Under the pieces are notes generated by a model, which saw only the letters and a list, made by a program, of their open reading frames with translations, searched no databases and had not been told where the DNA came from. Of a stretch of DNA of 32,000 nucleotides, positions 12,756 through 29,104 are shown in pieces (the first letter of the stretch is position 1; each line of letters opens with the position of its first letter). The position numbers and the translations under genes were made by a program. Location of the stretch: NCBI RefSeq assembly GCF_001306055.1, contig NZ_LGHJ01000017.1, forward strand, positions 210,001-242,000, given 5' to 3'. Source of the stretch: Bellilinea caldifistulae (GTDB lineage Bacteria > Chloroflexota > Anaerolineae > Anaerolineales > Anaerolineaceae).

Positions 12756-15023
12756 TTACCTCCGCTGTGATTTTCCATTCTGATTGATCGTTTTCAAAAT
12801 GCTGCCTTTTACCGTCCGCATCATGATTGTTCCTGTTTCATCAATCGTTCCGGCCAAGTTGATTTTATCTGCCCAATTGATGTGCACAGCGTTACCCGGC
12901 ATGACATTATGCTGCTGGCCGATATTGATAATCTCACATCCCTGTGCCTGCGCAGCATTCATCAAAGTTAGTTCGGTAATTGTGGTTATCTGTATCGTTG
13001 AAGAAATCTGATCATGCGCCGTACCGGCAATTGAGGTGGCATGCTGCTGAATTACCTGAACGGTCGCGGCAATTTGAATGCCCGCAACCGCGGCGGGTAA
13101 AACCTGCTGGGCTTGCGTAATGGTCATTAGTCCAGAGGCCTGCTGCTGGTATGAATTACTGATTATTGAAGCATGTATCTGTGTTAAAGATATTTGTTGT
13201 GATACCTGCTCCTGCCGGACATTGTTCAAAGTCAGTGCACCTGATGAAAGCACATCGAATGATCGGGATGTAGTCCAGTTTCCCCAGCTGTTTGACCCTG
13301 CTGGGTCCATCCCGCGCACCCGCCAGAAATGCGTACCTAAAGATGGCCATGAGGTTGTCAGGCGTATTGTATCGCCGCTGTTAAATGGGTCTGTATCGGC
13401 TGGAGTCGTCTGATTCGCAAAGCCAGAATCAACATTAGACGTTACCATCGTCTCGGCAAGCACCTCGCGGACGCGGTACCAGGCATCATCCGTAATGCGA
13501 GGGCCGTTATTCGTCGAGTTGGCGCCGTCCAGGTACACATTACCCGCGGATGTCGCGGCAGACGTGCCGGCCGTTGTGATGGCAAGGGCGTTGTTTGTAT
13601 TTGTGTCGTTTGGCCGCCAATCCAGAACGATGATGTAAAACTTACCCGGTTCGAGGCGAATACGGTTTGCACCGGTAAAGGCAAGCGTTTTCCAACCAAG
13701 ATCGGCCGCACCGGGGTTGTATAGATATATTTCGGATTGTGCCAGCCAGCCCGGCGTCGGTGTGTTCGCCGCATCGGCCGCTCCTACCGGATAAAGACCC
13801 GGCAAGGCCTCCCAGGTAACCGTACCATCCGTTACTTCAGTTCCAGATGGTACCGTCTTCCACGCAACACCGTTCCCCGGCCAGGCCGGCTCTGATGCCG
13901 CACTTGTTCCCGCAATTTTACAGCGGTAAACAAAGTGCAAGTCGGCATTGGCGGTGCTGGTTGGGCGAACAATCTGTCCGACCGTATAAGCGGTGGACGG
14001 CGACCAAACCGGCGGAACCGGATTTACCGGATAACCGGCTGCCTCATATACTCTGGCCAGGTAATAGCCGTTGGTCAGCTCCGGCGTGGTTTCGTGCGGT
14101 CCAAAACGGAAGTCCACCGAATCCAGAATTCCACCGGCTGCCTGGAATCCCATACCCAGACGGTCATCAACCTGCCAGTACCCTTCCCACGTTGTTATGG
14201 CCACCGGGTTGGGATGTATGGTTGTTCCCGCTCCGGATGGTTGCTCACTCGTTACAACCGTGCCGCTCTGGAAAAGAGCATTATCGGCTATCTCAACCTG
14301 ATATGTGATGCTGTCGTTATCCGGGTCTGTGCCGGCAAAGTCCAGCTGCACCGGCGAACTTAATTGTGCCTGATCGGGTGTGATCAGGGATACATCAGGA
14401 GGAAGGTTGGGCGGTGCCTGCTGCTCCGAGACGGCAAAGAGAATTCCGATCCAGGTACTGTTATCGATGGCTGCCGTTTTGTTTCCCGTTGCTCCGGCGG
14501 TGGATTGTAAGACGTGAGCTCCGGCAAGCCGGTTGATGGCCAGCGTCGTGGTCATGCCGGACGGCGTAAAGTTGACAGAGTTCGCTGACCAGTTCGCCGC
14601 CATCATCACCAGGCTGTTATTGTGCGTGGTAGTAATTCCGGTCGCTGTGACGGTCGTTCCAGTCCCGATATTATCGGACGGCGTGCCGTCGATCGGCGTA
14701 GTCGAATCTGCTCCCGAAAGGCGCACCATAATTCCGCGCCGCGACGATCCGGTTACATTGATGTTGAAGGTGTGCGATGATGGCTCGCCCACCTGAGCAA
14801 TACGAACTAACACGGCAAGGCCCTGCTGATTGTTGGAGTGCTGCCGCTGCCGCACAAGAGTCCATCCCGAAGCAGAGGCACTGAACGTTCCTGAAGTAAA
14901 TGCACAGGAAACGAATGCAACCAGCACCTCGCCAGCCTGCACGCCAGCGGGAGTATTGACGACTATAGTCGTACCGCTTCCGCCGGGTACAGCACTGGAT
15001 GTGGACTCAACAACAATGGCCAT
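12756..15023 (-). CDS. Tail-fibre-like / receptor-binding-like large protein (755 aa)
   Basis: Contains a fibre-typical carbohydrate-binding-like motif (WSPSTAYTVGQIVRP...FVYRCKIAGTSAASEPAWP...DGTVTWEA), a tandem-domain N-terminus and a Q-rich repetitive C-terminal region. It lies outside the tail operon. Confidence 0.55.
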   Translation of the reverse strand: MAIVVESTSSAVPGGSGTTIVVNTPAGVQAGEVLVAFVSCAFTSGTFSASASGWTLVRQRQHSNNQQGLAVLVRIAQVGEPSSHTFNINVTGSSRRGIMVRLSGADSTTPIDGTPSDNIGTGTTVTATGITTTHNNSLVMMAANWSANSVNFTPSGMTTTLAINRLAGAHVLQSTAGATGNKTAAIDNSTWIGILFAVSEQQAPPNLPPDVSLITPDQAQLSSPVQLDFAGTDPDNDSITYQVEIADNALFQSGTVVTSEQPSGAGTTIHPNPVAITTWEGYWQVDDRLGMGFQAAGGILDSVDFRFGPHETTPELTNGYYLARVYEAAGYPVNPVPPVWSPSTAYTVGQIVRPTSTANADLHFVYRCKIAGTSAASEPAWPGNGVAWKTVPSGTEVTDGTVTWEALPGLYPVGAADAANTPTPGWLAQSEIYLYNPGAADLGWKTLAFTGANRIRLEPGKFYIIVLDWRPNDTNTNNALAITTAGTSAATSAGNVYLDGANSTNNGPRITDDAWYRVREVLAETMVTSNVDSGFANQTTPADTDPFNSGDTIRLTTSWPSLGTHFWRVRGMDPAGSNSWGNWTTSRSFDVLSSGALTLNNVRQEQVSQQISLTQIHASIISNSYQQQASGLMTITQAQQVLPAAVAGIQIAATVQVIQQHATSIAGTAHDQISSTIQITTITELTLMNAAQAQGCEIINIGQQHNVMPGNAVHINWADKINLAGTIDETGTIMMRTVKGSILKTINQNGKSQRR

Positions 15024-15467: not shown

Positions 15468-16028
15468 CTATCTCCGCTCCGCCGGATTTACCAATTTCAA
15501 ACCAAGCGCCGTGAATATCCCAGCTTCTGTGCCGTCATCAATTCGTTCCTCTCCACGGAAAATCCCATAACCGGCACGATACTGCAATCCCAACCGCATC
15601 GCTCGAACTGCTAAGTTCCTGTTGAATTCCGCACTTCCTGTGCGCAATTGCCATAATGCCTCGAAGTTTGACCCGTCATGCTCGCAAATATATAATTCCA
15701 CAGGTATCTCGCCGTATTGGACGTATTGGAAATTGAGTTTGCGAGGATATTCTTTCGGATTGAATGTTCCCCATCCTTTTTTATCGAATAGTTGCAGCAG
15801 CCGGCCAGGATAAATATTTACAATGCATTCGCCTTGTCCAAATAATCCGATCTGCTCAATACGCAGCGTTTCAACAATTGGCCAGATGACAATGTCTATG
15901 TCGTGAACTTTATTGCATTCCCGGCGAATACTGCCGGCGATTTCTACACGATGGCAAACCGGCCGCAGTATGTTGGCAATCTCGTTAGCGGCCTCTTGTG
16001 CATCTTTCAAAGTAAATTCTTTTTTCAC
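15468..16028 (-). CDS. Minimal Pol X-family (Pol beta-like) nucleotidyltransferase / DNA polymerase
   Basis: 186 aa. The GS...D.D motif (AGSIRRECNKVHDIDIVI), a third acidic block (VELYICE), a thumb-like LRTGSAEFNRNLAVRAMRLGLQYRAGYGIF and the C-terminal FTALGLKLVNPAERR follow the order of motifs I recall from the 174-aa ASFV Pol X. Confidence 0.7.
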   Translation of the reverse strand: MKKEFTLKDAQEAANEIANILRPVCHRVEIAGSIRRECNKVHDIDIVIWPIVETLRIEQIGLFGQGECIVNIYPGRLLQLFDKKGWGTFNPKEYPRKLNFQYVQYGEIPVELYICEHDGSNFEALWQLRTGSAEFNRNLAVRAMRLGLQYRAGYGIFRGEERIDDGTEAGIFTALGLKLVNPAERR

Positions 16029-20709: not shown

Positions 20710-21185
20710 TGCTGCACCTCCTCAAACCCCGGCAGGGGTTTATCGAAATCGAGAATATCCGCAGGAATAAGAATGGGGGTAATCAATGACCGGCTTCCGT
20801 GTGCAACCGCCGCCATCATCTCACTCAACAATACCGTGGTGATATTGACCGGCAGTGTCTTCGGGTCCACTTGCCGGAAGCCGTTGGCTTCCATCCACTT
20901 GATCAGGTCACTCATCCGGAAAACATTCACGCCGTTCGCGTTGACCATCCGCAGCAGATCGTCCACAACGTCGCCGGAGCGGTTGATCACCGCAAAAGCA
21001 TACTGCCCGCGGTGCGGCCAGATCATCACGTAGAGGTTATGCCCCTCATAAACTGCCGTCCCGCTGCGCCCCGCTGCTGCTGCCCGCATACCCGCTACGG
21101 TGGAGTAAAAATCGAGTGGATAAACGCTGGCACAGGCAAGCGAGATCAACGCAAGCAGCAATACAAAAATAGATAACCGTTTCAT
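20706..21185 (-). CDS. Secreted or periplasmic protein with signal peptide (159 aa)
   Basis: MKRLSIFVLLLALISLACASVYP is a classic signal peptide. Function unknown; a superinfection-exclusion-type role is possible. Confidence 0.5.
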   Translation of the reverse strand: MKRLSIFVLLLALISLACASVYPLDFYSTVAGMRAAAAGRSGTAVYEGHNLYVMIWPHRGQYAFAVINRSGDVVDDLLRMVNANGVNVFRMSDLIKWMEANGFRQVDPKTLPVNITTVLLSEMMAAVAHGSRSLITPILIPADILDFDKPLPGFEEVQQ

Positions 21186-21493
21186 TTGTTTTGCTCCTTT
21201 CTGTTTTTGTGGTTGGGGGCTGGCTTTCTACCAGCCCCCTGCTGCCCCGCCGGCCGAGGAGGGCGGCCGGCAGTAACAACCTCGATTTGTTCGGGCTCAT
21301 ATGCCCACAACACCCAGATGCCCCCGTGGGACAAGGCGCGCATTTCCTCCGGCAGCTGCGGGTCGTGCGGATCGTGGCTGACCAGTATCCGCCCCGGCAG
21401 GCCGTCTTTTTCCACCAGCCTGCCCTGCACCAGCCCCGGGCCGTTTGGGGTGCGCACTATGGAAAGAAATTGAATTTTAGGTTTATCGGTCAT
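21182..21493 (-). CDS. Hypothetical protein (103 aa from internal Met)
   Basis: The upstream part of ORF 21182-21589 overlaps the tRNA-like element and is P/R-rich. The Met at 21493 gives MTDKPKIQFLSIVRTPNGPGLVQGRLVEKDG... Confidence 0.45.
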   Translation of the reverse strand: MTDKPKIQFLSIVRTPNGPGLVQGRLVEKDGLPGRILVSHDPHDPQLPEEMRALSHGGIWVLWAYEPEQIEVVTAGRPPRPAGQQGAGRKPAPNHKNRKEQNK

Positions 21494-21597
21494 GATTGCT
21501 CCGTTTTGGGGGCGGAAGTCGCTTATACCGCTAATTGCCGCAACGCGCCTCCGCCCCCGGGAGGTGGGGTTCACCGGTGGGGGGGACACCGGCTAAT

Positions 21598-21648
21598 TGG
21601 CGGGGCAGGATTCGAACCTGATTTGCTGGTCTGGTCTGCGGCCCCACC
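21598..21648 (-). ncRNA. tRNA-like minihelix (7-bp acceptor-like stem plus T-arm, no D or anticodon arms)
   Basis: The minus strand reads GGTGGGG-(21 nt)-CAGG-TTCGAAT-CCTG-CCCCGCC-A. It has a canonical T-loop and the acceptor strands pair with one G-U. It lies in a 162-nt ORF-free gap and is followed by the hairpin CCGGTG-N8-CACCGG. Confidence 0.4.
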
Positions 21649-21655
21649 AGTTTGC

Positions 21656-21838
21656 TCATTTCAACAACTCCTGCTCACTCTCTGGATCGATTTCTTCCTC
21701 GTTCTGTTTTTCAAGGGCGTTAGCAATCCGATAAAGCGCAACCGCAATCGCCTCCAGAGCCCATTCGATAGCAATGCTGCCACTGTTTGAGTGTGTATTT
21801 TCGATTAATATTTCGTTCAACTCACGATTGATTTCCAT
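21656..21838 (-). CDS. Hypothetical small acidic protein (60 aa)
   Basis: ORF with GAGGAGG RBS. Helical, lower GC than its neighbours. Confidence 0.45.
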   Translation of the reverse strand: MEINRELNEILIENTHSNSGSIAIEWALEAIAVALYRIANALEKQNEEEIDPESEQELLK

Positions 21839-21944
21839 CTTTCCTCCTCATCTCAAGATAACTTACAAAAACAACAATTGCCAGGGATGCCGCCGGCAGG
21901 CTGCACAGCGCCGCGGTAAAAGCTACCCACTCGTTCATGATTCA

Positions 21945-22176
21945 ACCTCCGCCCGTCTCTCCGGGCCGTCACACCACTTCAAACACCGCAGGTGTCGCGC
22001 GGGAGGCGTCCCTTGCCCTGTCCGCCTGGTCAAGCGTTCTTTCCGCTTTGTCCCCCGCCATTGCAGGCGGAGTTGTAGTCCAGCCGGGCGGGACTTGCAC
22101 CCGCCCAGGCCACTCTGGCGGCTGGATCGAAAGGAGGAGAAGATGAACGGAGTGTCTGGCACACCACCCCGCGCCG
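21945..22176 (-). ncRNA. Structured RNA domain homologous to the 3' third of the module B large RNA
   Basis: There is no credible frame; ORFs 21935-22546(-) and 21937-22146(+) are GC artefacts. It shares a 23-nt identical block GTGACGGCCCGGAGAGACGGGCG, the 19-nt T-loop block GGGTGCAAGTCCCGCCCGG, and compensatory helix changes relative to 28092-28263. Confidence 0.55.
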
Positions 22177-22392
22177 TTAGTCCCGGTTGCGCGACAAGAT
22201 CGCCTCGATCTCGTCGAGGGCTTCCATATTCTCCGCCAGTGCCGTTCCGGCTTTTGCCACCAGGTTGGCCGCCCGCTGGTGCGGAAATTCCTCCACCAGC
22301 CGTTTGAGCGATTCGCGGATCACCCGGTTTGCCAGCCGCGCACGGCTCAATTCTTGTCGGAATACATAACCGCCGATTTTCTTTTCGGTCAT
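22177..22392 (-). CDS. Hypothetical helical protein (71 aa from internal Met)
   Basis: The Met at 22392 has a GGAGGTG RBS. MTEKKIGGYVFRQELSRARLANRVIRESLKRLVEEF... has protein-like composition, unlike the upstream part of the listed 126-aa ORF. Confidence 0.5.
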   Translation of the reverse strand: MTEKKIGGYVFRQELSRARLANRVIRESLKRLVEEFPHQRAANLVAKAGTALAENMEALDEIEAILSRNRD

Positions 22393-22637
22393 AAACACCT
22401 CCGCTTGTCTGCCAAGTGCGCGCTTGATCAAACAAACGGCGTCTAGCCGCCCCGTCGCACAGCCGGTCGAGGTTCTGCCCGACTGCCGCCCGCTGTGCAA
22501 ATTCACCCATTTTGCCTCCCGATTCAATCCTGTACTTGATTCGCAATGGCTAACCAATCACAATAAGCGTGATGATCATTGCGATTAAGCCAAAAACCGC
22601 GAGAAACCAGTTTTCCCAGTCCTCGCGGAATGAATAT

Positions 22638-22829
22638 TTATTCGACTTCATGAGTGACCGCCTCGCCCTCAACCGGGCTGGTATTCCCGTGCCGGCGCAG
22701 CCATTCAAGCCGGATCAGCCGCCGCACCCATGCCGAACGATTGTCGTAAGCATCCTCCACCATCATCCGGTCGATCATGCGGGCGTCTTCCTCAGTTACA
22801 TTCACATTGACCTGCACGAATTCGGGCAT
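22638..22829 (-). CDS. Ribbon-helix-helix (CopG/Arc-like) DNA-binding protein, Cro-like position
   Basis: 63 aa. MPEFVQVNVNVTEEDARMIDRMMVEDAYDNRSAWVRRLIRLEW shows the beta-strand, helix, helix pattern of RHH proteins. It is an early gene divergent from the XRE repressor. Confidence 0.65.
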   Translation of the reverse strand: MPEFVQVNVNVTEEDARMIDRMMVEDAYDNRSAWVRRLIRLEWLRRHGNTSPVEGEAVTHEVE

Positions 22830-22841
22830 GTTGACTCCTTT

Positions 22842-22979
22842 CTACAAAATCACAAAGCGGTGATGTCCGGCATAAAAAACAACGCGCCAGCGGTAGGTCT
22901 TCCAAATAACCAATACCAGCGCTCCGATCTTCAACTGCATGATTTTTTCTATTGGGTTGATAAAAATATCGGTGTTCAT
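22842..22979 (-). CDS. Possible first early ORF (45 aa)
   Basis: Below the ORF-track cutoff. GGAG lies 5 nt before the ATG. It reads MNTDIFINPIEKIMQLKIGALVLVIWKTYRWRVVFYAGHHRFVIL and lies between the early promoter and the RHH gene. Confidence 0.3.
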   Translation of the reverse strand: MNTDIFINPIEKIMQLKIGALVLVIWKTYRWRVVFYAGHHRFVIL

Positions 22980-22993
22980 GTTTTCTCCAAAAG

Positions 22994-23028
22994 TTAGAAT
23001 TTTCTAAATAAACGTCAGATACATCTAA
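22994..23028. promoter_or_regulatory. Two related palindromic operator candidates (TTAGAATTTTCTAA and TCAGATACATCTAA)
   Basis: A perfect 14-bp palindrome sits at 22994-23007 and a 14-bp near-palindrome with the same half-sites at 23015-23028. Their centres are 21 bp apart, and both lie between the divergent early promoter and the first early ORF. Confidence 0.45.
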
Positions 23029-23029
23029 C

Positions 23030-23058
23030 ATTATAGCACCTTATATGAAAATGTCAAG
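23030..23058 (-). promoter_or_regulatory. Consensus sigma70 early promoter (TTGACA-17-TATAAT with TGn extension)
   Basis: On the minus strand, the -35 TTGACA is at 23053-58 and the -10 TATAAT at 23030-35, preceded by TGC. The spacer is 17 nt. It overlaps the start codon region of the plus-strand XRE gene. Confidence 0.6.
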
Positions 23059-23530
23059 CGTATCTTACAATAAATCAGGAAATTCTTGCATCGTTGATGA
23101 CATAATGTTAGGTGTGGATTACAATTTTTCCGAATGGTTGTTGAATCAGTTAAATTCACGTGGGTGGACACAAGCAGAACTGGCTCGCAGAGCAGGCGTT
23201 AGCCGAACAGCAATAAGTGATGTAATCTCTGACAAACACTCTGCTGGATTTGAACTTTGTCTTGCCATTTCTCGTGCGCTGAATCTGCCGCCCGAAACCG
23301 TCTTCCGTGCCGCCGGTCTCTTGCCGCCGGTTTCGCCGGCAATTGCACTCTCCGAAGAGGTAATGTATCTGCTGCAAAAGTTACCGGTGGAAGAACAAGA
23401 GCGTTTTCTTGCATTGTTAAGGTTTGAGGTGGAAAGACAAGCAAAAAAACCTCCAACAAAACCGCCAAAGAAAACATCGCCAACGAGCCGGGCAGAAAAA
23501 CCGGCTCGAAGTGCGTTAAAAGAAGAATAG
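23045..23530 (+). CDS. XRE-family HTH transcriptional regulator (CI-like prophage repressor candidate)
   Basis: 161 aa. SRGWTQAELARRAGVSRTAISDVISDKHSAGFELCLAISRAL is a classic XRE/Cro-CI HTH. It is divergent from the early operon. The C-terminal tail is lysine- and proline-rich. Confidence 0.8.
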   Translation: MKMSSVSYNKSGNSCIVDDIMLGVDYNFSEWLLNQLNSRGWTQAELARRAGVSRTAISDVISDKHSAGFELCLAISRALNLPPETVFRAAGLLPPVSPAIALSEEVMYLLQKLPVEEQERFLALLRFEVERQAKKPPTKPPKKTSPTSRAEKPARSALKEE

Positions 23531-23600
23531 AACACAAATTCTATAAATTTGAGGGAAAAGCATTATAATGAATGTAAATATTCTCCACTGGAAGTAAACC

Positions 23601-24353
23601 ATGAAAGACAAAGTTTCCCTCACCCTTAATGGTGAAATTCCTGTCAATCTTTTTGCAGAAGCTATATCCGGCTTATCCGGTTTGCTTCATGCTCTTACTG
23701 AAGAGATCGCCGCTGGCAAAACTATTGAGTGGCAGATTATAGAGCTCAGCGCCGGCAGCGCCACGGCTGTCATTCAAGGAATTGCTGATACCGCCGAAGA
23801 CGTGGAAAAAATTACTACCGCATATGCTTTCATTGGTCGGCAGTTGCAAATTGGCAATACGATTCCTTATTCTCCAAAAGTTATTCAATCTGCAAGAAAG
23901 ATTGCCAGCATTCTTGACGGAAAAGTTTCTTCCATCGAATTCGGCATTGATGGCGAAATCTATCACATAACCCAATCTGGTTTTCAAGAAAAACCAATGA
24001 CCAAAGCCTATTCTTACGGCGTTATTACGGGAAAGGTAGAAAACCTGATTGGACATAAAACACTAAAATTTACTCTTTACGATAATCTTTTCAATCGTGG
24101 TGTTACCTGTTATGTAGAAGAGGAAAAACGCGAGTTATTAAGAAATATCTGGGGTAAAACCGTATCGGTTACCGGCTATATATACCGTGACATTATTACA
24201 GGTCGCCCTCTTGAAATTCACGACATTGAAACTGTTGAAATTGTTCCTATGAGAGAACCTGGTGCTTATAAAAAAGCTCGAGGCGCTCTTTCCTGGAAAC
24301 CCGGTGACGAAACTGCAGATCAAACCATACGGCGATTGAGAGATGACAATTAG
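23601..24353 (+). CDS. Unknown 250-aa protein, upstream partner of the PIN nuclease
   Basis: Low-GC ORF with a TATAAT at 23564-69 upstream. No motif recognised. The C-terminal ~90 aa (GVITGKVENLIGHKTLKFTLYD...VSVTGYIYRD...LEIHDIETVEIV) look like a small beta-barrel or OB-like domain. It overlaps the next gene by 11 nt. Confidence 0.6.
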   Translation: MKDKVSLTLNGEIPVNLFAEAISGLSGLLHALTEEIAAGKTIEWQIIELSAGSATAVIQGIADTAEDVEKITTAYAFIGRQLQIGNTIPYSPKVIQSARKIASILDGKVSSIEFGIDGEIYHITQSGFQEKPMTKAYSYGVITGKVENLIGHKTLKFTLYDNLFNRGVTCYVEEEKRELLRNIWGKTVSVTGYIYRDIITGRPLEIHDIETVEIVPMREPGAYKKARGALSWKPGDETADQTIRRLRDDN

Positions 24354-24843
24354 TAGACAAAATCTATACTGGGATTCTTGTGTGTTTCTTAGATACATCA
24401 ATAACGAATTAGATAGTACCATTATTGAAGAATTGATGAGACGAGCCGAATCGAAACAAGTCAACATTTTTACATCCACAATTACTATAGCCGAGGTAAC
24501 CCACGCAGCCCAGGAAAGAAATCAATCTGCCCTGAATTCAGTCATTGAAGATGTATTACAAAATCTGTTCGGTCCTCCTATCAAACTGGTAGATTATTCA
24601 ATAACCATTGGTTATGAAACCAGAGATTTCATTCGCACTGCGATGACTCATTCTAAAAAGATCAAGCCAATAGACGGTATTCACCTTACTACTGCATCCT
24701 GGATTGATCGTTACATTGCTCGGTTGGACGAATTCAACACTTATGATCAAGTCCTCAAGTCGCTCTATCCCGATATCATATCCATCAAAATTATTGAACC
24801 ACATGTTGATCAATTACCTTTATTCAACAATCCGCTCCCATAA
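24343..24843 (+). CDS. PIN-domain (VapC-like) ribonuclease
   Basis: 166 aa. The four acidic positions occur in PIN order: LYWDSCVFL (D), ITIAEVTH (E), KPIDGIHLTTA (D), FNTYDQVL (D). Confidence 0.7.
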   Translation: MTISRQNLYWDSCVFLRYINNELDSTIIEELMRRAESKQVNIFTSTITIAEVTHAAQERNQSALNSVIEDVLQNLFGPPIKLVDYSITIGYETRDFIRTAMTHSKKIKPIDGIHLTTASWIDRYIARLDEFNTYDQVLKSLYPDIISIKIIEPHVDQLPLFNNPLP

Positions 24844-25020
24844 CCTAATCAAGCCGGTATTGGATCTAAACCTGGCTTACTGGCAAGAGCGGGAGGCGCT
24901 TTCAGAACAAATCAAGCTCCTGGAAGAAGATTGAGATTGAATTTATCTAAATCCTTTGTTCAATGATGCAGGTCTTGTTTTATATGACTGCCAATAATAA
25001 AAACCCCCAAAAGGTGACCT

Positions 25021-25398
25021 ATGACAGAACCCTATTACGACAACAAAGCACAATATGACCGCATCCGCGGTTACATCATTCCCGGCGAAACCATCTTTGC
25101 CGTTTATGACTGCAAAGGCGGCGGCACGGGGTTTGTCGGCATTACGGATCGGCGCATCATCTTTTACGATCAGGCCTTCCTGACCAAAAAGAAATCAATG
25201 GTTTCGATCCCCTACAATCAGATCATCGGCATTGCCTCGGTGGATGAAGGAGTCATCTTTCAGACCAGCGAAATTACCCTGCTCACCGCCGCCGGCAATT
25301 ACACTTTCCAGTTCCGCGGCGCCGATAAAGCCCACAATGCCTACAGCTTCATCATGAATCAACTGCTTGGACAGGCACATCCCCAATTGAAGGGATAA
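25021..25398 (+). CDS. Bacterial PH-domain protein (YokE/bPH-like)
   Basis: 125 aa. GETIFAVYDCKGGGTGFVGITDRRIIFYDQAF...SIPYNQIIGIA...ITLLTAAGNYTFQF matches the bacterial pleckstrin-homology pattern. Confidence 0.65.
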   Translation: MTEPYYDNKAQYDRIRGYIIPGETIFAVYDCKGGGTGFVGITDRRIIFYDQAFLTKKKSMVSIPYNQIIGIASVDEGVIFQTSEITLLTAAGNYTFQFRGADKAHNAYSFIMNQLLGQAHPQLKG

Positions 25399-25399
25399 C

Positions 25400-26389
25400 C
25401 TATCCCCCCAGCCCCATGATCATATCTCTAACGTCATCACTGACGAGCTTCCCGTAAATCCCGTCAGTGATACCCATATTGGAGTGCATCAGATTCTGGC
25501 TGATCGCCTTCATCTGCGCCGGCGTCCTGGCCTGCTTGAGCGCGTAAACCGCGTGCCCGTGCCGGAATTTGTGCGGCGATTTATAAGCCACACCCGCGCG
25601 CTCACATAAGACTTTTAGATCATCCCGCAGACTGTGGCGCACCTCAAGCCGCTTGCCGGTCGGCTTCTCGGTGGTGATCTCGCCGAAGCGGTCCAGATGG
25701 GCATACCAGTACGCCTCCGGCGGCAAGCGTTTCCGTAGAAACGCATCCCATTCCTGCACCACTTCAAGCAAGTCGGGAATGTTCAGCAGAAACGTGACCG
25801 CCGCCTTGCTGTTTTTGGTGTGCACGCCCTTTGCCGGCAGCTGCAACACGCGGAGGTTAGCCAGGTCCACGCACTCCAGCGGCAGGGTCACGAATGCCCC
25901 AACCCGCATCCCGGAAAGAAACAGAAACGCAACCGCCGCCCGCATCCGGCGCTGGGCGGTCGTATCTGCCGGGCAGCTAACCAGCTTGCGCACCTCTTCC
26001 AGGGTATAAAGCTCGCGCGATTCCAGCTGAGCCTGCTCACTGCGCCCCCGCGACGGGCGCAGACTCTCCACCCAGCGCGCGTCCATGTTTTTGTAGCGCC
26101 GCGGGTACTCGCTTTTGGCCCAGTTCAGGAACGCCCGGCAGGTTTTCATCATCGCGTTGAGATGCGCCGCCGAGAGCGGCTTTTTATTTTTGCCGATCAG
26201 CGCCTCGCAATAAACCGGAAAGGCCGGCCTGATTCGGCCGCACTTGCTGAACGGCTTTTCATCTGCCCATTCCAGCAGGTGGCGCAGACGCGACCAGAGC
26301 GTGTTGATCGTCCCCGGTGAGAGCTGGCGCACGCTGGCCTGGAAGTCCAGGTAGGCTTTCACATCGAGGTAATTCTGTCTGTGGATCAT
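25400..26389 (-). CDS. int: Tyrosine recombinase / phage integrase
   Basis: 329 aa. It has an N-terminal SAM-like core-binding domain and a catalytic region with R (LSGMRVGAF), HKFRHGHA, LMHSNMGITDGIY (H...Y). Confidence 0.9.
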   Translation of the reverse strand: MIHRQNYLDVKAYLDFQASVRQLSPGTINTLWSRLRHLLEWADEKPFSKCGRIRPAFPVYCEALIGKNKKPLSAAHLNAMMKTCRAFLNWAKSEYPRRYKNMDARWVESLRPSRGRSEQAQLESRELYTLEEVRKLVSCPADTTAQRRMRAAVAFLFLSGMRVGAFVTLPLECVDLANLRVLQLPAKGVHTKNSKAAVTFLLNIPDLLEVVQEWDAFLRKRLPPEAYWYAHLDRFGEITTEKPTGKRLEVRHSLRDDLKVLCERAGVAYKSPHKFRHGHAVYALKQARTPAQMKAISQNLMHSNMGITDGIYGKLVSDDVRDMIMGLGG

Positions 26390-26793
26390 GAAGACTTAAT
26401 GAAGCGGTGGATTTTACCGCCGCACTCCGGGCATGTGCCGCTGAGTTGGACCACATTCTGGCGCCGGCTGTGTGGGCGCATCTTCGGCGACTGCACCATC
26501 ACCACGCGGTTGCAGCGCATGCAATACGCGTGCCCGGCCGGCATGGGGGGCTTGCTTTTGCCGCGCCGGGTGGTGGTCAGGTAGTCGCGCGCCCATTGCG
26601 CAAACTGCCGTCCGTTGATCCACACCTTCCCGCCGGCGTCCAGTACCACCGGGGCACCGGCCGGTATATACGAGCGATAGACCGTATCGTGAGAGACCCC
26701 CAGTTCCTCTGCCAGTTCGGCAGGTTTATAGAGCATATTGAGCAGCCGTTCCAAAGCGGCCGCCTTCGATCGGTTCAGTCGTGGCGCTGGCAC
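26386..26793 (-). CDS. HTH plus C-terminal Zn-ribbon DNA-binding protein coupled to the integrase (excisionase or regulator candidate)
   Basis: GTG start with a GGAGGTG RBS. The HTH is YKPAELAEELGVSHDTVYRSYI and the Zn-ribbon is CMRC...CPEC. Its stop overlaps the int start (ATGA). Confidence 0.55.
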   Translation of the reverse strand: MPAPRLNRSKAAALERLLNMLYKPAELAEELGVSHDTVYRSYIPAGAPVVLDAGGKVWINGRQFAQWARDYLTTTRRGKSKPPMPAGHAYCMRCNRVVMVQSPKMRPHSRRQNVVQLSGTCPECGGKIHRFIKSS

Positions 26794-26855
26794 ACCACAC
26801 CTCCGTAGGATGTATTTTAGATCGCCCTGTGCGCGCAGCGGCGATTCATGATAAA

Positions 26856-26864
26856 ATTATAGCA
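26856..26864 (-). promoter_or_regulatory. Extended -10 promoter candidate (TGCTATAAT) for the 26793 HTH and int operon
   Basis: Minus-strand TGnTATAAT lies about 60 nt upstream of the GTG start. No good -35 is present. Confidence 0.35.
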
Positions 26865-26920
26865 CGCACGGCAAAAAAAGCCACTTAAAAGTGGTGATTA
26901 ACAGGCTAGATATTCCAATC

Positions 26921-26957
26921 CGTGAGGTTCGGGGGTTCGAGCCCCTCCGCGCCCACC
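26921..26957 (+). other. tRNA 3'-end fragment (variable region, T-arm, acceptor 3' strand): prophage att core
   Basis: GGGGG-TTCGAGC-CCCTC-CGCGCCC-A-CC is a canonical T-arm plus acceptor 3' strand. No matching 5' acceptor strand, D-arm or anticodon arm can be folded upstream. It lies next to the integrase operon. Confidence 0.6.
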
Positions 26958-26986
26958 TTCACAGGGATTCCATCCCTGTACTCCGC

Positions 26987-27024
26987 AACGCACCTGATGG
27001 ATCCCTGGGTGCGTTTTGTGTTTT
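26987..27024 (+). terminator. Rho-independent terminator following the tRNA fragment
   Basis: 8-bp stem AACGCACC/GGTGCGTT (26987-94 / 27008-15) followed by TTTTGTGTTTT. A separate perfect hairpin CAGGGAT-tcc-ATCCCTG lies at 26962-78. Confidence 0.5.
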
Positions 27025-27041
27025 CAGCAGGAAGGTCAGAT

Positions 27042-27506
27042 ATGGTTACACTCCCCACATTTCTACCCGTTGCCGAAGCCGCCCGCAAGTACGGGCTGGA
27101 TGAGGCCCGCTTGCGCGCTCTGATTGAGAAAGGTAAAATCAGGGCTGGAGTGGTTGCGGGAGAAATGGTCGTGAGCGAAGAAGAAGTACGAGGACAAGCC
27201 ATTGAGGAGAAAGGTCTCCACAAAGAGGATTTGCCGGAGTATCAGAAACATGCGCATTTGAAAGGGCAGGCAATTTGGATTAGAGAAGCAGAAAGAAGTT
27301 ACGGAGTACCAGCAGAAACTTTATCCACATGGGCTAAAAAGGGATATATTAGAATAGTTGGTAAAAAAGGAAACAAAGTTTTGCTGGATGAAGCGGATGT
27401 TGCTTATTGTTCAGATGTATACAGAAAATCAGGCAAGCAAGGACGCATTCTGTTCAATCCAGATGGAACTCCTTATAAACCTAAAACAACTTCACTTGTG
27501 ATGTAA
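27042..27506 (+). CDS. Tandem excisionase/MerR-type HTH protein
   Basis: The preferred start is ATG 27042 (AGGAAGG RBS), since the upstream part of ORF 26922-27506 overlaps the tRNA fragment and terminator. It has two HTH repeats: LPVAEAARKYGLDEARLRALIEKGKIRA and IWIREAERSYGVPAETLSTWAKKGYIRI. Confidence 0.6.
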   Translation: MVTLPTFLPVAEAARKYGLDEARLRALIEKGKIRAGVVAGEMVVSEEEVRGQAIEEKGLHKEDLPEYQKHAHLKGQAIWIREAERSYGVPAETLSTWAKKGYIRIVGKKGNKVLLDEADVAYCSDVYRKSGKQGRILFNPDGTPYKPKTTSLVM

Positions 27507-27549
27507 CTTAATTAAGAGCGCAGTTTTGATCTGCAATATTTATTTTCTT

Positions 27550-27593
27550 AATTGTCAGAAGTTATTGACGCTTCTGACAATTAATGCTATACT
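27550..27593 (+). promoter_or_regulatory. Near-consensus sigma70 promoter (TTGACG-17-TATACT) embedded in a perfect 12-bp inverted repeat operator
   Basis: The -35 is at 27565-70 and the -10 at 27588-93. AATTGTCAGAAG (27550-61) and CTTCTGACAATT (27571-82) flank the -35. The surrounding context is AT-rich. Confidence 0.7.
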
Positions 27594-27599
27594 CCTCAT

Positions 27600-28290
27600 A
27601 GCACTTTTACAAACCAGCGTCCCGCTGAATGCCTCAAACACAACGCCCCGGCGAAAGGGCGTTGTGCGCCCGACCGGGGCGTTCCGTGAGCCGTGCGGTA
27701 ACACGCTCACGGTTGAGGCAAGCAGACCGTGACTGCTCACCCCATCCGCGATTGTAGCATGAGATGACAGCCCTCTGCAAGCCTCTCACAAGGAATGTGA
27801 TTTGCAGAGGGCTTTGTGTTTCCCGTGCGGTGTTGGCTCAAGGCCTTTCAGGCGGCAGGTGCGTTGTGGCGGGTTCAAGTCCCGCCCGCCTGAATTCCGG
27901 TTTTGCCATGCTAACGTCGGCTGAGCAGGGAGGTGGGAGCGGGGCTGAGTCATCAGCACCCGGCGGGGTAAGGGACGGGGAGCCCTTGCCTGACGGTGCG
28001 GCAGGTGAGACCATCGGAAGCCTGCCGGGGGACGTGACAGCCGGGAGAGACCGGCAAGCACCTTGACAAGCGACATGGTAATCCTCTGTTTCCAACCGCC
28101 ATAGACGGGCAGGATGATCCCCGATCCTGCGGTGGGTGCAAGTCCCGCCCGGTTGGACTGCCAAACCTGTCGGTGTCGTTGCACCATCAACGGACAGGTG
28201 CAGCCCGGCACACCCTAACCAGTGTCGGGAAACAGGCAGGGTGACGGCCCGGAGAGACGGGCGCGAGGGCAATCCCTCTCACTTGATCAA
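27600..28290 (+). ncRNA. Large (~690 nt) highly structured phage RNA of unassigned class (GOLLD/ROOL-like context), co-transcribed with tRNA-Met
   Basis: It has no credible ORF. Perfect helices include 27640-48/27657-65, 27684-91/27705-12, 27769-80/27802-13 and 27999-28005/28021-27. There are two GAGAGA-loop hairpins, two tRNA-like T-arm modules, a promoter upstream and a tRNA immediately downstream. Confidence 0.6.
27769..27821 (+). terminator. Possible internal attenuator/terminator-like hairpin within the large RNA
   Basis: 12-bp stem AGCCCTCTGCAA/TTGCAGAGGGCT with an inner TCACA/TGTGA helix, followed by TTTGTGTTT. It could yield a short ~220-nt RNA, with read-through giving the long form. 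Confidence 0.3.
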
Positions 28291-28361
28291 GCGGGAGTAG
28301 CTCAACGGAAGAGCGGCGGCGTCATGAGCCGCAGGGTGAAGGTTCAAATCCTTCTTCCCGT
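28291..28361 (+). tRNA. tRNA with CAU anticodon (Met, or Ile2 if lysidine-modified)
   Basis: Hand-folded cloverleaf: acceptor GCGGGAG/TTCCCGT (two G-U pairs), D-arm GCTC-AACGGAA-GAGC, anticodon arm GCGGC-GTCATGA-GCCGC, variable AGGGT, T-arm GAAGG-TTCAAAT-CCTTC. No encoded CCA. Confidence 0.8.
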
Positions 28362-28382
28362 TCTGTGAAAACGAGGTTTCTC

Positions 28383-28592
28383 ATGTGTGAGCATCGAAGG
28401 AAAGTTGGCGACAATTACGGACTGACCTGCCTGGACTGCGGCGAGGTGTTGGAAGGCTACGGCTATTGGGGACAGACCGATACCTGCCGTCACGTCTGGA
28501 TGAAAAGCGAAGGCGGCTATGAGTGCCTGTACTGCCAAGAATGGCTGAACGAGGAAACCCGGCAGATGTTTCATGGGGGTGAGCAACCATGA
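28383..28592 (+). CDS. Small Cys-rich (Zn-finger) protein
   Basis: The preferred start is ATG 28383 (GAGG RBS) rather than the GTG at 28365 that abuts the tRNA. The sequence is MCEHRRKVGDNYGLTCLDCGEVL...CRHVW...YECLYCQEW. Its stop overlaps the next start (ATGA). Confidence 0.5.
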   Translation: MCEHRRKVGDNYGLTCLDCGEVLEGYGYWGQTDTCRHVWMKSEGGYECLYCQEWLNEETRQMFHGGEQP

Positions 28593-29104
28593 AAATCAGA
28601 ATGCCGTTAGAAGAAGCCGAACGAATTGCGCTGAAATACGCCGAAATGCTTGCGCCGAAATGCGAGCGTATTGAGATCGCCGGGAGTATTCGGCGGCGTA
28701 AGCCAATGGTAGGCGACATTGAGATTGTGGCAAAGCCGCTGATGTCCACAGACTTGTTCGGCTTTTCCACCGGTCATCAAGACCTAACGCTGCCCTTGCC
28801 AACAAGTAAAAACGGGCAGAGGTACAAACAATATCTTCTGCCGGAAGGTGTAATGCTTGATTTGTTCATTGTCCTGCCACCTGCCCAGTGGGGCGTGATT
28901 TTCGCCATCCGCACGGGTGGGGCGGAGTTTTCCCGCAAACTTGTCACGGCGAAACGATACGGTGGTTACCTGCCGTCTGCTTACGTGGTGAGAGACGGCG
29001 CGGTTCATCGTGTTGATACCGGGGAGATGATCCTTACCCCCGAAGAAATTGATTTTTTCAATCTCTGTGAACTGGACTGGATCAAACCCGAAGAAAGGAA
29101 TTGA
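28589..29104 (+). CDS. Minimal Pol X-family (Pol beta-like) nucleotidyltransferase / DNA polymerase, second copy
   Basis: 171 aa. AGSIRRRKPMVGDIEIVA (GS...D.E), MLDLFIV, IRTGGAEFSRKLVT and LCELDWIKPEERN occur in the same motif order as 15468-16028 and as the ASFV Pol X I recall. Confidence 0.7.
   Translation: MKIRMPLEEAERIALKYAEMLAPKCERIEIAGSIRRRKPMVGDIEIVAKPLMSTDLFGFSTGHQDLTLPLPTSKNGQRYKQYLLPEGVMLDLFIVLPPAQWGVIFAIRTGGAEFSRKLVTAKRYGGYLPSAYVVRDGAVHRVDTGEMILTPEEIDFFNLCELDWIKPEERN

Follow-up and report, generated by a model that had tools for sequence, protein, structure and literature searches.

Several described RNAs resemble the two kinds of element treated here, which are encoded in a 32,000-nt stretch of DNA from Bellilinea caldifistulae (contig NZ_LGHJ01000017.1), called the window in the following: four short minihelices with the shape of a tRNA top half, in which a T-arm sits on an acceptor-like helix, and a two-hairpin motif with a GARAGA loop, referred to as the GARAGA motif. 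One such RNA is mascRNA/MEN-beta of the MALAT1 and NEAT1 transcripts (Rfam RF01684), a tRNA-like fold within a long non-coding transcript that serves there as a cleavage signal for RNase P and RNase Z. Like the minihelices, it combines an acceptor stem and a T-arm with other arms that are reduced. However, mascRNA is eukaryotic, no upstream triple helix was seen at the phage elements, and mascRNA is processed whereas processing of the minihelices is a prediction. Another is the tRNA-like domain of transfer-messenger RNA (tmRNA), including its minimal and two-piece forms, which has an acceptor stem, a T-arm and a reduced D-loop but no anticodon arm. Its acceptor strands are about 300 nt apart, whereas those of a minihelix are adjacent, and the minihelices have no tag reading frame and no pseudoknot region of the tmRNA type.

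In mitochondria, tRNA-shaped units are cleavage points of polycistronic transcripts, and D-arm-less and armless mitochondrial tRNAs have a short replacement loop in place of the D-arm, comparable to the linkers of the minihelices. These units are decoding tRNAs with anticodon loops, whereas minihelices of types 1 and 3 (Table 1) have no 7-nt anticodon loop and the long form of type 2 has a hairpin of variable loop size at the position of the anticodon arm. T-loops also hold RNAs together in RNase P RNA, T-box leaders and rRNA. The T-loop modules of RNase P RNA, T-box stem I, the ribosomal L1 stalk and riboswitches obey the same five-nucleotide U...A rule as the minihelices; they cap a helix and make long-range contacts, but do not sit on an acceptor-like helix of 7 bp and have no cis linker that follows the D-loop rule of tRNAs.

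The GARAGA motif can be compared with the put sites of HK022 and the boxB elements of lambdoid nut sites. The boxB of lambda reads GCCCU-GAAAA/GAAGA-AGGGC. The similarities are the presence of two adjacent stem-loops and the form of the second GARAGA hairpin (P2), which has a GC-rich stem of 5 bp and a loop of purines only, beginning with GA. The differences are a loop of six nucleotides, a conserved flank GUGAC-R instead of boxA, and the frequent location of the motif 2-10 nt before a tRNA. As for GARAGA, no phage protein is consistently linked to put; only ten put sequences were aligned in the study describing this (PMC9378689), whereas GARAGA occurs across nearly all bacterial phyla. GOLLD and ROOL are large structured prophage RNAs that often lie beside tRNA genes (PMC5737381), as is the case here. 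Their sequence motifs are different, and the window has no match to their Rfam models at E ≤ 10.

Results

The preliminary description of the window had listed four elements with a T-arm on an acceptor-like helix, and all four are present as written (Table 1). To compare their number with chance, we used a scanner that required an acceptor stem of 7 bp, a T-stem with 4 bp or more, a T-loop matching T[TG]C[AG]AN[TC] and no more than 40 nt of insert. Six matches were found in the window, namely the four minihelices, the tRNA-Met gene and a hairpin inside an open reading frame (ORF), compared to a mean of 0.14 (standard deviation 0.37, maximum 2) in 300 dinucleotide-preserving shuffles. T-arm-like hairpins alone occurred 13 times, with 3.7 expected. 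The hairpin inside the ORF has a perfect acceptor and T-arm shape and is probably due to chance or coding constraints.

Table 1. Features of the window, numbered from its first letter.
Feature	Position	Strand	Layout	Composition, context and basis
Minihelix, type 3	21598-21648	(-)	GGTGGGG-N21-CAGG-TTCGAAT-CCTG-CCCCGCC-A	Stem GGTGGGG/CCCCGCC (8 bp with U-1:A73), 21-nt linker, 4-bp T-stem CAGG/CCTG, T-loop UUCGAAU; in a 160-nt gap downstream of a 60-codon ORF; read from the sequence and matched by the scanner
Minihelix, type 2, short form	22080-22125	(-)	CCAGCCG-N13-GGCGGG-TGCAAGT-CCCGCC-CGGCTGG	Stem CCAGCCG/CGGCTGG, 13-nt linker CCAGAGUGGCCUG, 6-bp T-stem, T-loop UGCAAGU
Minihelix, type 1	27849-27893 (27847-27894 including the 9-bp stem)	(+)	CAGGCGG-N13-GCGGG-TTCAAGT-CCCGC-CCGCCTG-A	9-bp stem UUCAGGCGG/CCGCCUGAA, 13-nt linker with GG, 5-bp T-stem (sixth G-C pair possible), T-loop UUCAAGU
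Minihelix, type 2, long form	28092-28156	(+)	CCAACCG-N32-GGTGGG-TGCAAGT-CCCGCC-CGGTTGG	Stem CCAACCG/CGGTTGG, conserved linker CNNAGNGG, variable 7-bp hairpin, 6-bp T-stem, T-loop UGCAAGU
GARAGA copy, module A	21951-21995	(-)	P1 ACACC..GGUGU, GAC-G, P2 GCCCG-GAGAGA-CGGGC	Followed by the ribosome-binding site and ATG of a 38-codon ORF
GARAGA copy B1	27914-28055	(+)	P1 ACGUC..GACGU, GAC-A, P2 GCCGG-GAGAGA-CCGGC	P1 around a 112-nt structured insert
GARAGA copy B2	28212-28262	(+)	P1 ACCCU..AGGGU, GAC-G, P2 GCCCG-GAGAGA-CGGGC	Ends 28 nt 5' of tRNA-Met
Genuine tRNA-Met (CAU)	28291-28363	(+)		ARAGORN; Rfam RF00005, 60.8 bits; no CCA encoded; closes the untranslated region
Probable transcript start	27565-27826	(+)		Sigma-70-like promoter 27565-27593 (promoter scan), conserved leader, long GC-rich hairpin and then UUGUGUUU (about 27770-27826; hairpin read from the sequence), about 20 nt upstream of type 1
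Damaged tRNA copy	26895-26957	(+)		Probable phage attachment site
Integrase gene	25400-26389	(-)
Excisionase-like gene	26386-26793	(-)
Pol-X-like gene	28589-29104	(+)		171 aa
Pol-X-like gene	15468-16028	(-)		186 aa
Hairpin inside an ORF	13061-13090	(-)	CGGTTGC-G-GGCA-TTCAAAT-TGCC-GCGACCG	Within the 755-codon ORF 12756-15023
Low-GC island	23000-25000			39-43% GC, about 55% elsewhere

In all four elements the acceptor-like helix lies directly on the T-stem and is combined with a 7-nt T-loop that fits the T-loop rule; the stacked helices have a tRNA-like length, with 7 + 5 bp in type 1, 7 + 6 bp in type 2 and 7 + 4 bp in type 3. The minimum-free-energy fold agreed with this model for three of the four, the short form of type 2 (z = -3.8), type 1 (z = -3.0) and the long form of type 2 (z = -3.7). 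Some details of the preliminary description have to be revised. None of the elements has a cloverleaf, but the long form of type 2 is not armless, as its 32-nt insert includes a 7-bp hairpin. The T-stem of type 3 has only 4 bp and is missing from the minimum-free-energy fold. The sequence AATT at the discriminator-like A includes that A (A-ATTA, A-ATTC) instead of following it. Furthermore, the A is not necessarily unpaired: all four elements have U at position -1 and A at position 73, which can pair and extend the acceptor-like helices to 8-9 bp. The 3:70 pairs, read from the sequence, are G-C, A-U, A-U and U-G, so that the alanine identity pair G3:U70 is absent from all four.

A search of the window with ARAGORN and Rfam identified tRNA-Met as the sole tRNA, and the tRNA model was silent on the four minihelices even at E ≤ 10. 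Relaxed ARAGORN runs gave only low-score, forced calls over three of the elements that borrowed flanking sequence. At a threshold of 80%, ARAGORN also called a permuted tmRNA over 27801-28335(+); since this call borrows the 5' end of tRNA-Met and has an implausible tag, AARHTLTSVGKQAG, we judged it to be a false positive. Neither default ARAGORN nor the Rfam tmRNA families, even at E ≤ 10, had a match in the window. The sole Rfam family with even a weak match to a minihelix was mascRNA-like RF01684 (27849-27892, 21.5 bits, E = 1), far under the gathering threshold of 42.5 bits. Bacterial Y RNA, GOLLD, ROOL and self-cleaving ribozymes of Rfam 15 had no match at E ≤ 10 in 21000-29000, and none was found in 24 related loci. 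Cobalamin and ykkC riboswitches as well as hammerhead, twister, pistol, hatchet, hepatitis delta virus-like and theta ribozymes were considered and dropped, as Rfam gave no match to them.

Comparison with related prophages showed that the minihelices are real and conserved and are not decayed tRNA genes. A blastn search of cultured phages with both regions gave no match, i.e., there is no near relative among them. The RNA region of module B, the part of the phage DNA that carries type 1 and the long form of type 2, could be aligned to loci of Thermanaerothrix daxensis (L148), T. solaris (L153), an uncultured Thermanaerothrix (L111), a metagenome-assembled genome (MAG) of Anaerolinea thermophila (L108), Bellilinea (L112) and an Anaerolineales MAG (L099). 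Across six homologues of type 1, 100% of the alignment cells were paired, with three T-stem pairs in which both sides had changed and an invariant acceptor stem. For type 2, eight sequences, among them the short form with seven homologues, had 95.5% of the cells paired, the remainder being one-column misalignments, and both sides had changed in five pairs. One of these was the -1:73 pair (UA in six sequences, AU in one). The stem of the 7-bp hairpin in the long form covaries among relatives, too. For type 3, an identical T-arm plus AATTA was found in L133/L189 and L213, where the acceptor stems were different but complementary. Homologues of the minihelix region are separated by 1- and 2-nt indels, indicating that it is non-coding. 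RNAalifold predicted a fold of -97 kcal/mol for the conserved multi-helix region, with six pairs changed on both sides. The order of the modules varies among relatives, as seen for L112 in comparison to the window. Absence of conservation had been named beforehand as an outcome that would speak for decayed pseudogenes; the compensatory changes show the opposite.

The linkers of the minihelices were compared with the D-loops of 619 distinct tRNAs called by ARAGORN in the retrieved loci. In tRNAs with a UUCRA T-loop, the D-loop contained GG in 463 of 466 cases. Those with a UGCAA T-loop had GG in only 7 of 70 cases and an AGNAG-type D-loop in 47 of 70. The minihelices obey a similar rule, with GG accompanying UUCRA and an AG-rich, mostly GG-poor loop accompanying UGCAA: the linker of type 1 (UUCAAGU) is CAGGUGCG and contains GG, while those of type 2 (UGCAAGU) are CAUAGACGG, CACAGUGGC or CCAGAGUGG and of the YAGNG type. 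UGCAAGU minihelices with a short insert on unrelated viral contigs had the linkers AUAGAU, CAAGUG or ACAGAGA. The agreement with the D-loop/T-loop rule suggests docking of the linker on the T-loop in the manner of a D-loop. The tRNA mimicry of the minihelices thus looks genuine, with the linker in place of the D-arm.

The same sample contained a class of phage tRNAs with the T-loop UGCAAGU, i.e., with G at position 55, and with AGCAG or AGUAG D-loops replacing GG (L353-L470 and other loci). Their sequences suggest an alternative elbow pairing, and we know of no description of such tRNAs.

The dominant conserved feature of both regions, which was missed by the preliminary description, is the GARAGA motif. 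It consists of a helix P1 (A-C-N-N-N ... N-N-N-G-U), which directly abuts GAC and a purine, followed by P2 with the GARAGA loop. In the window, its copies alternate with the minihelices and tRNA-Met, and the 20-mer GAC-R-GCCSG-GAGAGA-CSGGC is present at three sites, 28036-28055(+), 28243-28262(+) and 21951-21970(-). P1 covaries widely and encloses between 3 and more than 170 nt. When three stem pairs of P2 were left free in the search pattern, all three were complementary in 113 of 120 cases among the matches listed (5% expected), with about 30 different stems and a loop of GAGAGA or GAAAGA. An invariant P2 stem, which had been the impression from the exact 20-mer search, was therefore discarded. 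The occurrence of G-U pairs makes the structure strand-specific. The GARAGA motif is a real RNA structure that is strongly supported by covariation.

One exact form of the 20-mer was found in 54 IMG/VR contigs, and a slightly degenerate form in at least 120 genome loci of nearly all bacterial phyla, in prophages as well as viral contigs (L003-L176, L235-L352). The phyla include Chloroflexota, Pseudomonadota, Bacillota, Bacteroidota and Cyanobacteria. The motif matched no family of Rfam 15, and sequence and topic queries did not find it printed in the searchable literature.

Several other identities of the motif were considered and rejected. Mu-gpT-DE had been suspected, as the motif follows gpT-like capsid genes in Rhodobacterales, but had no match at E ≤ 5. 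A promoter of an extracytoplasmic function sigma factor or a phage RNA polymerase does not fit the half spacing of 3 to more than 170 nt, the covariation of both hairpins and the strand-specific G-U pairs. A CsrA site was dismissed because the motif is common in Alphaproteobacteria, which mostly lack CsrA. Repetitive extragenic palindromes, miniature inverted-repeat transposable elements and repeats of the clustered regularly interspaced short palindromic repeat (CRISPR) type were rejected in view of only 1-3 copies per phage, unshared flanks and a sequence common to many phyla. Matches in Salmonella phages were chance look-alikes. The idea that the P2 loop mimics a D-loop and docks on UGCAAGU T-loops was abandoned as speculation, the motif being nearby in only 1 of 72 such T-arms that were not called as tRNA.

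Two words were overrepresented upstream of the motif. GAGUAG/AGUAGG was enriched 17- to 25-fold within 150 nt (e.g., L067, L080, L162, L164; 27893-27899 in the window), and GAAUUCC about 3- to 4-fold. In Mu-like prophages of Rhodobacterales, both lie within a conserved RNA of about 150 nt between the capsid and Gp36-like genes.

Within 600 nt of 304 distinct GARAGA copies, 133 tRNA or tmRNA genes were located on the same strand and two on the opposite strand. Of the former, 41 start 0-100 nt downstream of the motif, and the gap to the tRNA was typically 2-10 nt in the exact-match loci. The closest tRNA-type neighbours comprised tRNA-Met in 12 of 33 cases and two tmRNAs. Phage-encoded tmRNAs adjoin the motif at L025 and L109. 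The tmRNA of L025 (9017-9426, viral contig) contains the motif in its pseudoknot region; at L109 (5553-5902, Proteobacteria MAG), where the tmRNA was confirmed by Rfam, the motif ends 4 nt before the 5' end. Near 181 GARAGA copies, there were 49 tRNA-like elements without an ARAGORN call, every one of them in the orientation of the motif; short-insert minihelices of the unrelated lineages L031, L071, L107 and L173 are among them.

No protein family was shared by the neighbourhoods of GARAGA: the largest cluster covered 12 of about 170 loci and the Pfam set was diverse. In other phages, some of the genes downstream of the motif are of anti-defence types (Acb2/Tad1, ADP-ribosylglycohydrolase). 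The clearest context is that in a lambdoid prophage of E. coli strain 23GD11002 (L234, 2700-3170), where three copies with GAAAGA loops follow an early promoter, are followed by two intrinsic terminators and precede the first ORF of the leftward operon, a nutL-like position. Of the 5426 complete genomes of E. coli, no other had a match. Pseudomonas phage Medea1 carries the motif downstream of its first rightward gene (gp57, coding for a hypothetical protein) and close to the gene of the cI repressor, a position compatible with put/nut. The copies of Ralstonia phage GP4 and Planktothrix phage Pag-Yong1 lie upstream of an HNH gene with which the packaging genes begin.

The window also contains a damaged tRNA copy beside the integrase gene and the excisionase-like gene. 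It aligns to the intact tRNA of L148 and L111, but lacks the acceptor strand on the 5' side and a portion of the anticodon arm. In both of these loci, homologous prophage DNA begins directly after the intact tRNA. The copy has the properties of an attachment-site fragment, which none of the four minihelices has, and is probably the attachment site of the phage. The preliminary description had spoken of two phage modules; the tRNA remnant beside the integrase and excisionase genes and the start of homologous DNA after the tRNA in L148 and L111 indicate that the modules most likely represent both arms of a single temperate phage, on either side of its attachment site. The transcript that carries the minihelices of module B likely starts at 27565-27826, and the layout of promoter, leader and hairpin recurs in L099, L111, L148 and L153. 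A CRISPR spacer in an A. thermophila MAG (L140, 876-916; repeat GTTGCACCCGTCTCGATCCGTTAGAGGATACTGAAAC) matches 28026-28065 at 39 of 41 aligned positions and covers the motif and its flanks at copy B1, suggesting that the host treats this DNA as foreign and targets this site of the phage.

A nucleotidyltransferase of the Pol beta superfamily had been reported in both modules and was found in both, in the form of two small Pol-X-like proteins with palm and thumb only. The 171-aa protein matches palm and thumb of Pfam DNA_pol_B and is 30% identical to the 186-aa protein (15474-16028(-); E = 1.7e-12). Its gene is the immediate downstream neighbour of tRNA-Met, as in L153. The proposed link of these proteins to the minihelices was not borne out: the family is not a recurrent neighbour across the loci, and the module A gene is about 5.5 kb away. 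The low-GC island contains genes for an HTH repressor-like, a PIN-domain and a bacterial PH-domain protein and may be an acquired immunity or toxin-antitoxin cassette.

Discussion

As judged from sequence, the minihelices are conserved mimics of tRNA top halves in untranslated leader and intergenic RNA of a temperate phage of the Anaerolineae (Chloroflexota). The acceptor-like helix would stack on the T-arm, and the short linker would replace the D-loop and allow a tRNA-like elbow. In the transcript, the minihelices would fill slots that are held by real tRNAs in other phages. The stack of acceptor stem and T-arm and the elbow are the features by which RNase P, RNase Z and the CCA-adding enzyme recognise a tRNA. 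RNase P might therefore read the 5' side of a minihelix and host tRNA 3'-end enzymes the other side, and together they would divide the untranslated transcript into defined fragments, similar to the punctuation of mitochondrial RNA by tRNAs. Because of this recognition and the real tRNAs in the same slots, a function as marks for RNase P-type cleavage in untranslated phage leaders is the simplest one, which we propose tentatively and rate at somewhat under an even chance.

Several observations weigh against this proposal. The elements do not encode a CCA, their acceptor-like helices are closed and the -1:73 pair has covaried once; these properties fit a structural helix as well as a processed end and argue somewhat against a free, chargeable acceptor end. 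Type 2 stacks 13 pairs instead of 12, and the T-stem of type 3 is marginal. Most GARAGA copies have no tRNA-like neighbour, so that the minihelices and GARAGA need not work together. A terminator scan of all loci in GC-rich DNA showed no enrichment of terminators downstream of GARAGA.

The main alternative is that the elements are not cut and instead act as structural T-loop modules that hold an ornate leader RNA of about 450 nt by tertiary contacts. The length of the helices with their paired and covarying "discriminator", the lack of an encoded CCA and the T-loops, which fit the U1...A5 rule, are in line with this, as is the location within the conserved multi-helix region; the shuffled order in L112 compared to the window would suit building blocks. 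A plain T-loop cap, however, needs neither a 7-bp stem on a T-stem of 5-6 bp nor a linker that obeys the D-loop/T-loop rule of tRNAs, and genuine tRNAs and a tmRNA occupy equivalent places beside GARAGA in other phyla. We consider uncut modules to be an unlikely explanation, albeit one to be taken seriously.

Cleavage might also serve to release small RNAs, perhaps CCA-tailed, that are decoys or substrates for enzymes acting on the acceptor end or elbow, either defence toxins or the Pol-beta-like nucleotidyltransferases of the phage. The two Pol-X-like genes, one of them next to tRNA-Met here and in L153, the anti-defence genes after GARAGA in other phages and the retention of the tRNA top half without the anticodon arm are compatible with such a role. 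On the other hand, the elements have no protein family as a consistent partner, the distance of the module A gene is large, and the paired discriminators speak against a free 3' end; the lack of G3:U70 in all four elements makes a charged, tmRNA-like decoy improbable. Altogether, we regard decoys or substrates as distinctly improbable.

Phage tRNA genes do decay, the window contains one true remnant beside the integrase and excisionase genes, and relaxed ARAGORN can force tRNA-like calls on three elements, which could point to decaying tRNA pseudogenes or attachment-site fragments without a function of their own. Covariation largely contradicts this, as both helices have been maintained across genera by compensatory changes, and both the length and the content of the linkers have been preserved. 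Unlike an attachment-site fragment, each element has both acceptor strands, and similarity to the 3' end of the integration-site tRNA of L148 and L111 is lacking in all four; the true remnant shows what decay looks like in this window. Decaying pseudogenes or attachment-site fragments are a very improbable explanation. Parts of a divergent or two-piece phage tmRNA are hardly credible, despite the comparable tRNA-like domain, the real tmRNAs joined to GARAGA at L025 and L109 and the permuted ARAGORN call, given that tmRNA models are silent, that G3:U70 and a 5' element of the GGAUUCGAC type are absent and that both acceptor strands of each element lie within 45-65 nt.

Whatever the role of the minihelices, GARAGA would be a separate cis element that acts on conserved host machinery. 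The two-hairpin form, the boxB-like purine loop, the absence of a linked phage protein and the context in the E. coli prophage lead us to favour a put/nut-like anti-termination signal, which the motif may represent; it may also be a hairpin that caps new RNA ends or a small ribozyme. A more far-reaching and rather doubtful possibility is that minihelices and GARAGA form a single unrecognised RNA system of phages in nearly all bacterial phyla, in which elbow mimics and a protein-independent element would act on RNA polymerase or RNase P and control read-through, cutting and survival of untranslated transcripts with tRNAs, tmRNAs and the leaders of early and late operons.

Mimicry of tRNA is a known theme, but as far as our searches show, conserved phage minihelices of this form and their pairing with an uncatalogued pan-bacterial motif have not been described. 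We are not aware of any report of phages that use the principle of processing at a tRNA top half, which is known from mitochondria and MALAT1. The GARAGA motif may be of greater importance than the minihelices, being short, backed by covariation, present across phyla and tied to tRNA and tmRNA genes; it is missing in Rfam 15 and in 5425 of the 5426 complete genomes of E. coli, which may explain why it went unnoticed. If the proposed functions were true, an anti-termination or end-capping signal that works across phyla with RNA only would be a useful tool. The phage tRNAs with an alternative T-loop/D-loop combination raise the question whether the elbow was altered to escape host enzymes, and the host CRISPR spacer shows that the GARAGA site is exposed to host defence. 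The minihelices mark an unstudied RNA system and not dead tRNA genes. If they are processing marks, these phages would have reduced tRNAs to the minimum that is read by the end-processing enzymes of the host, and would use it to shape their long untranslated transcripts.

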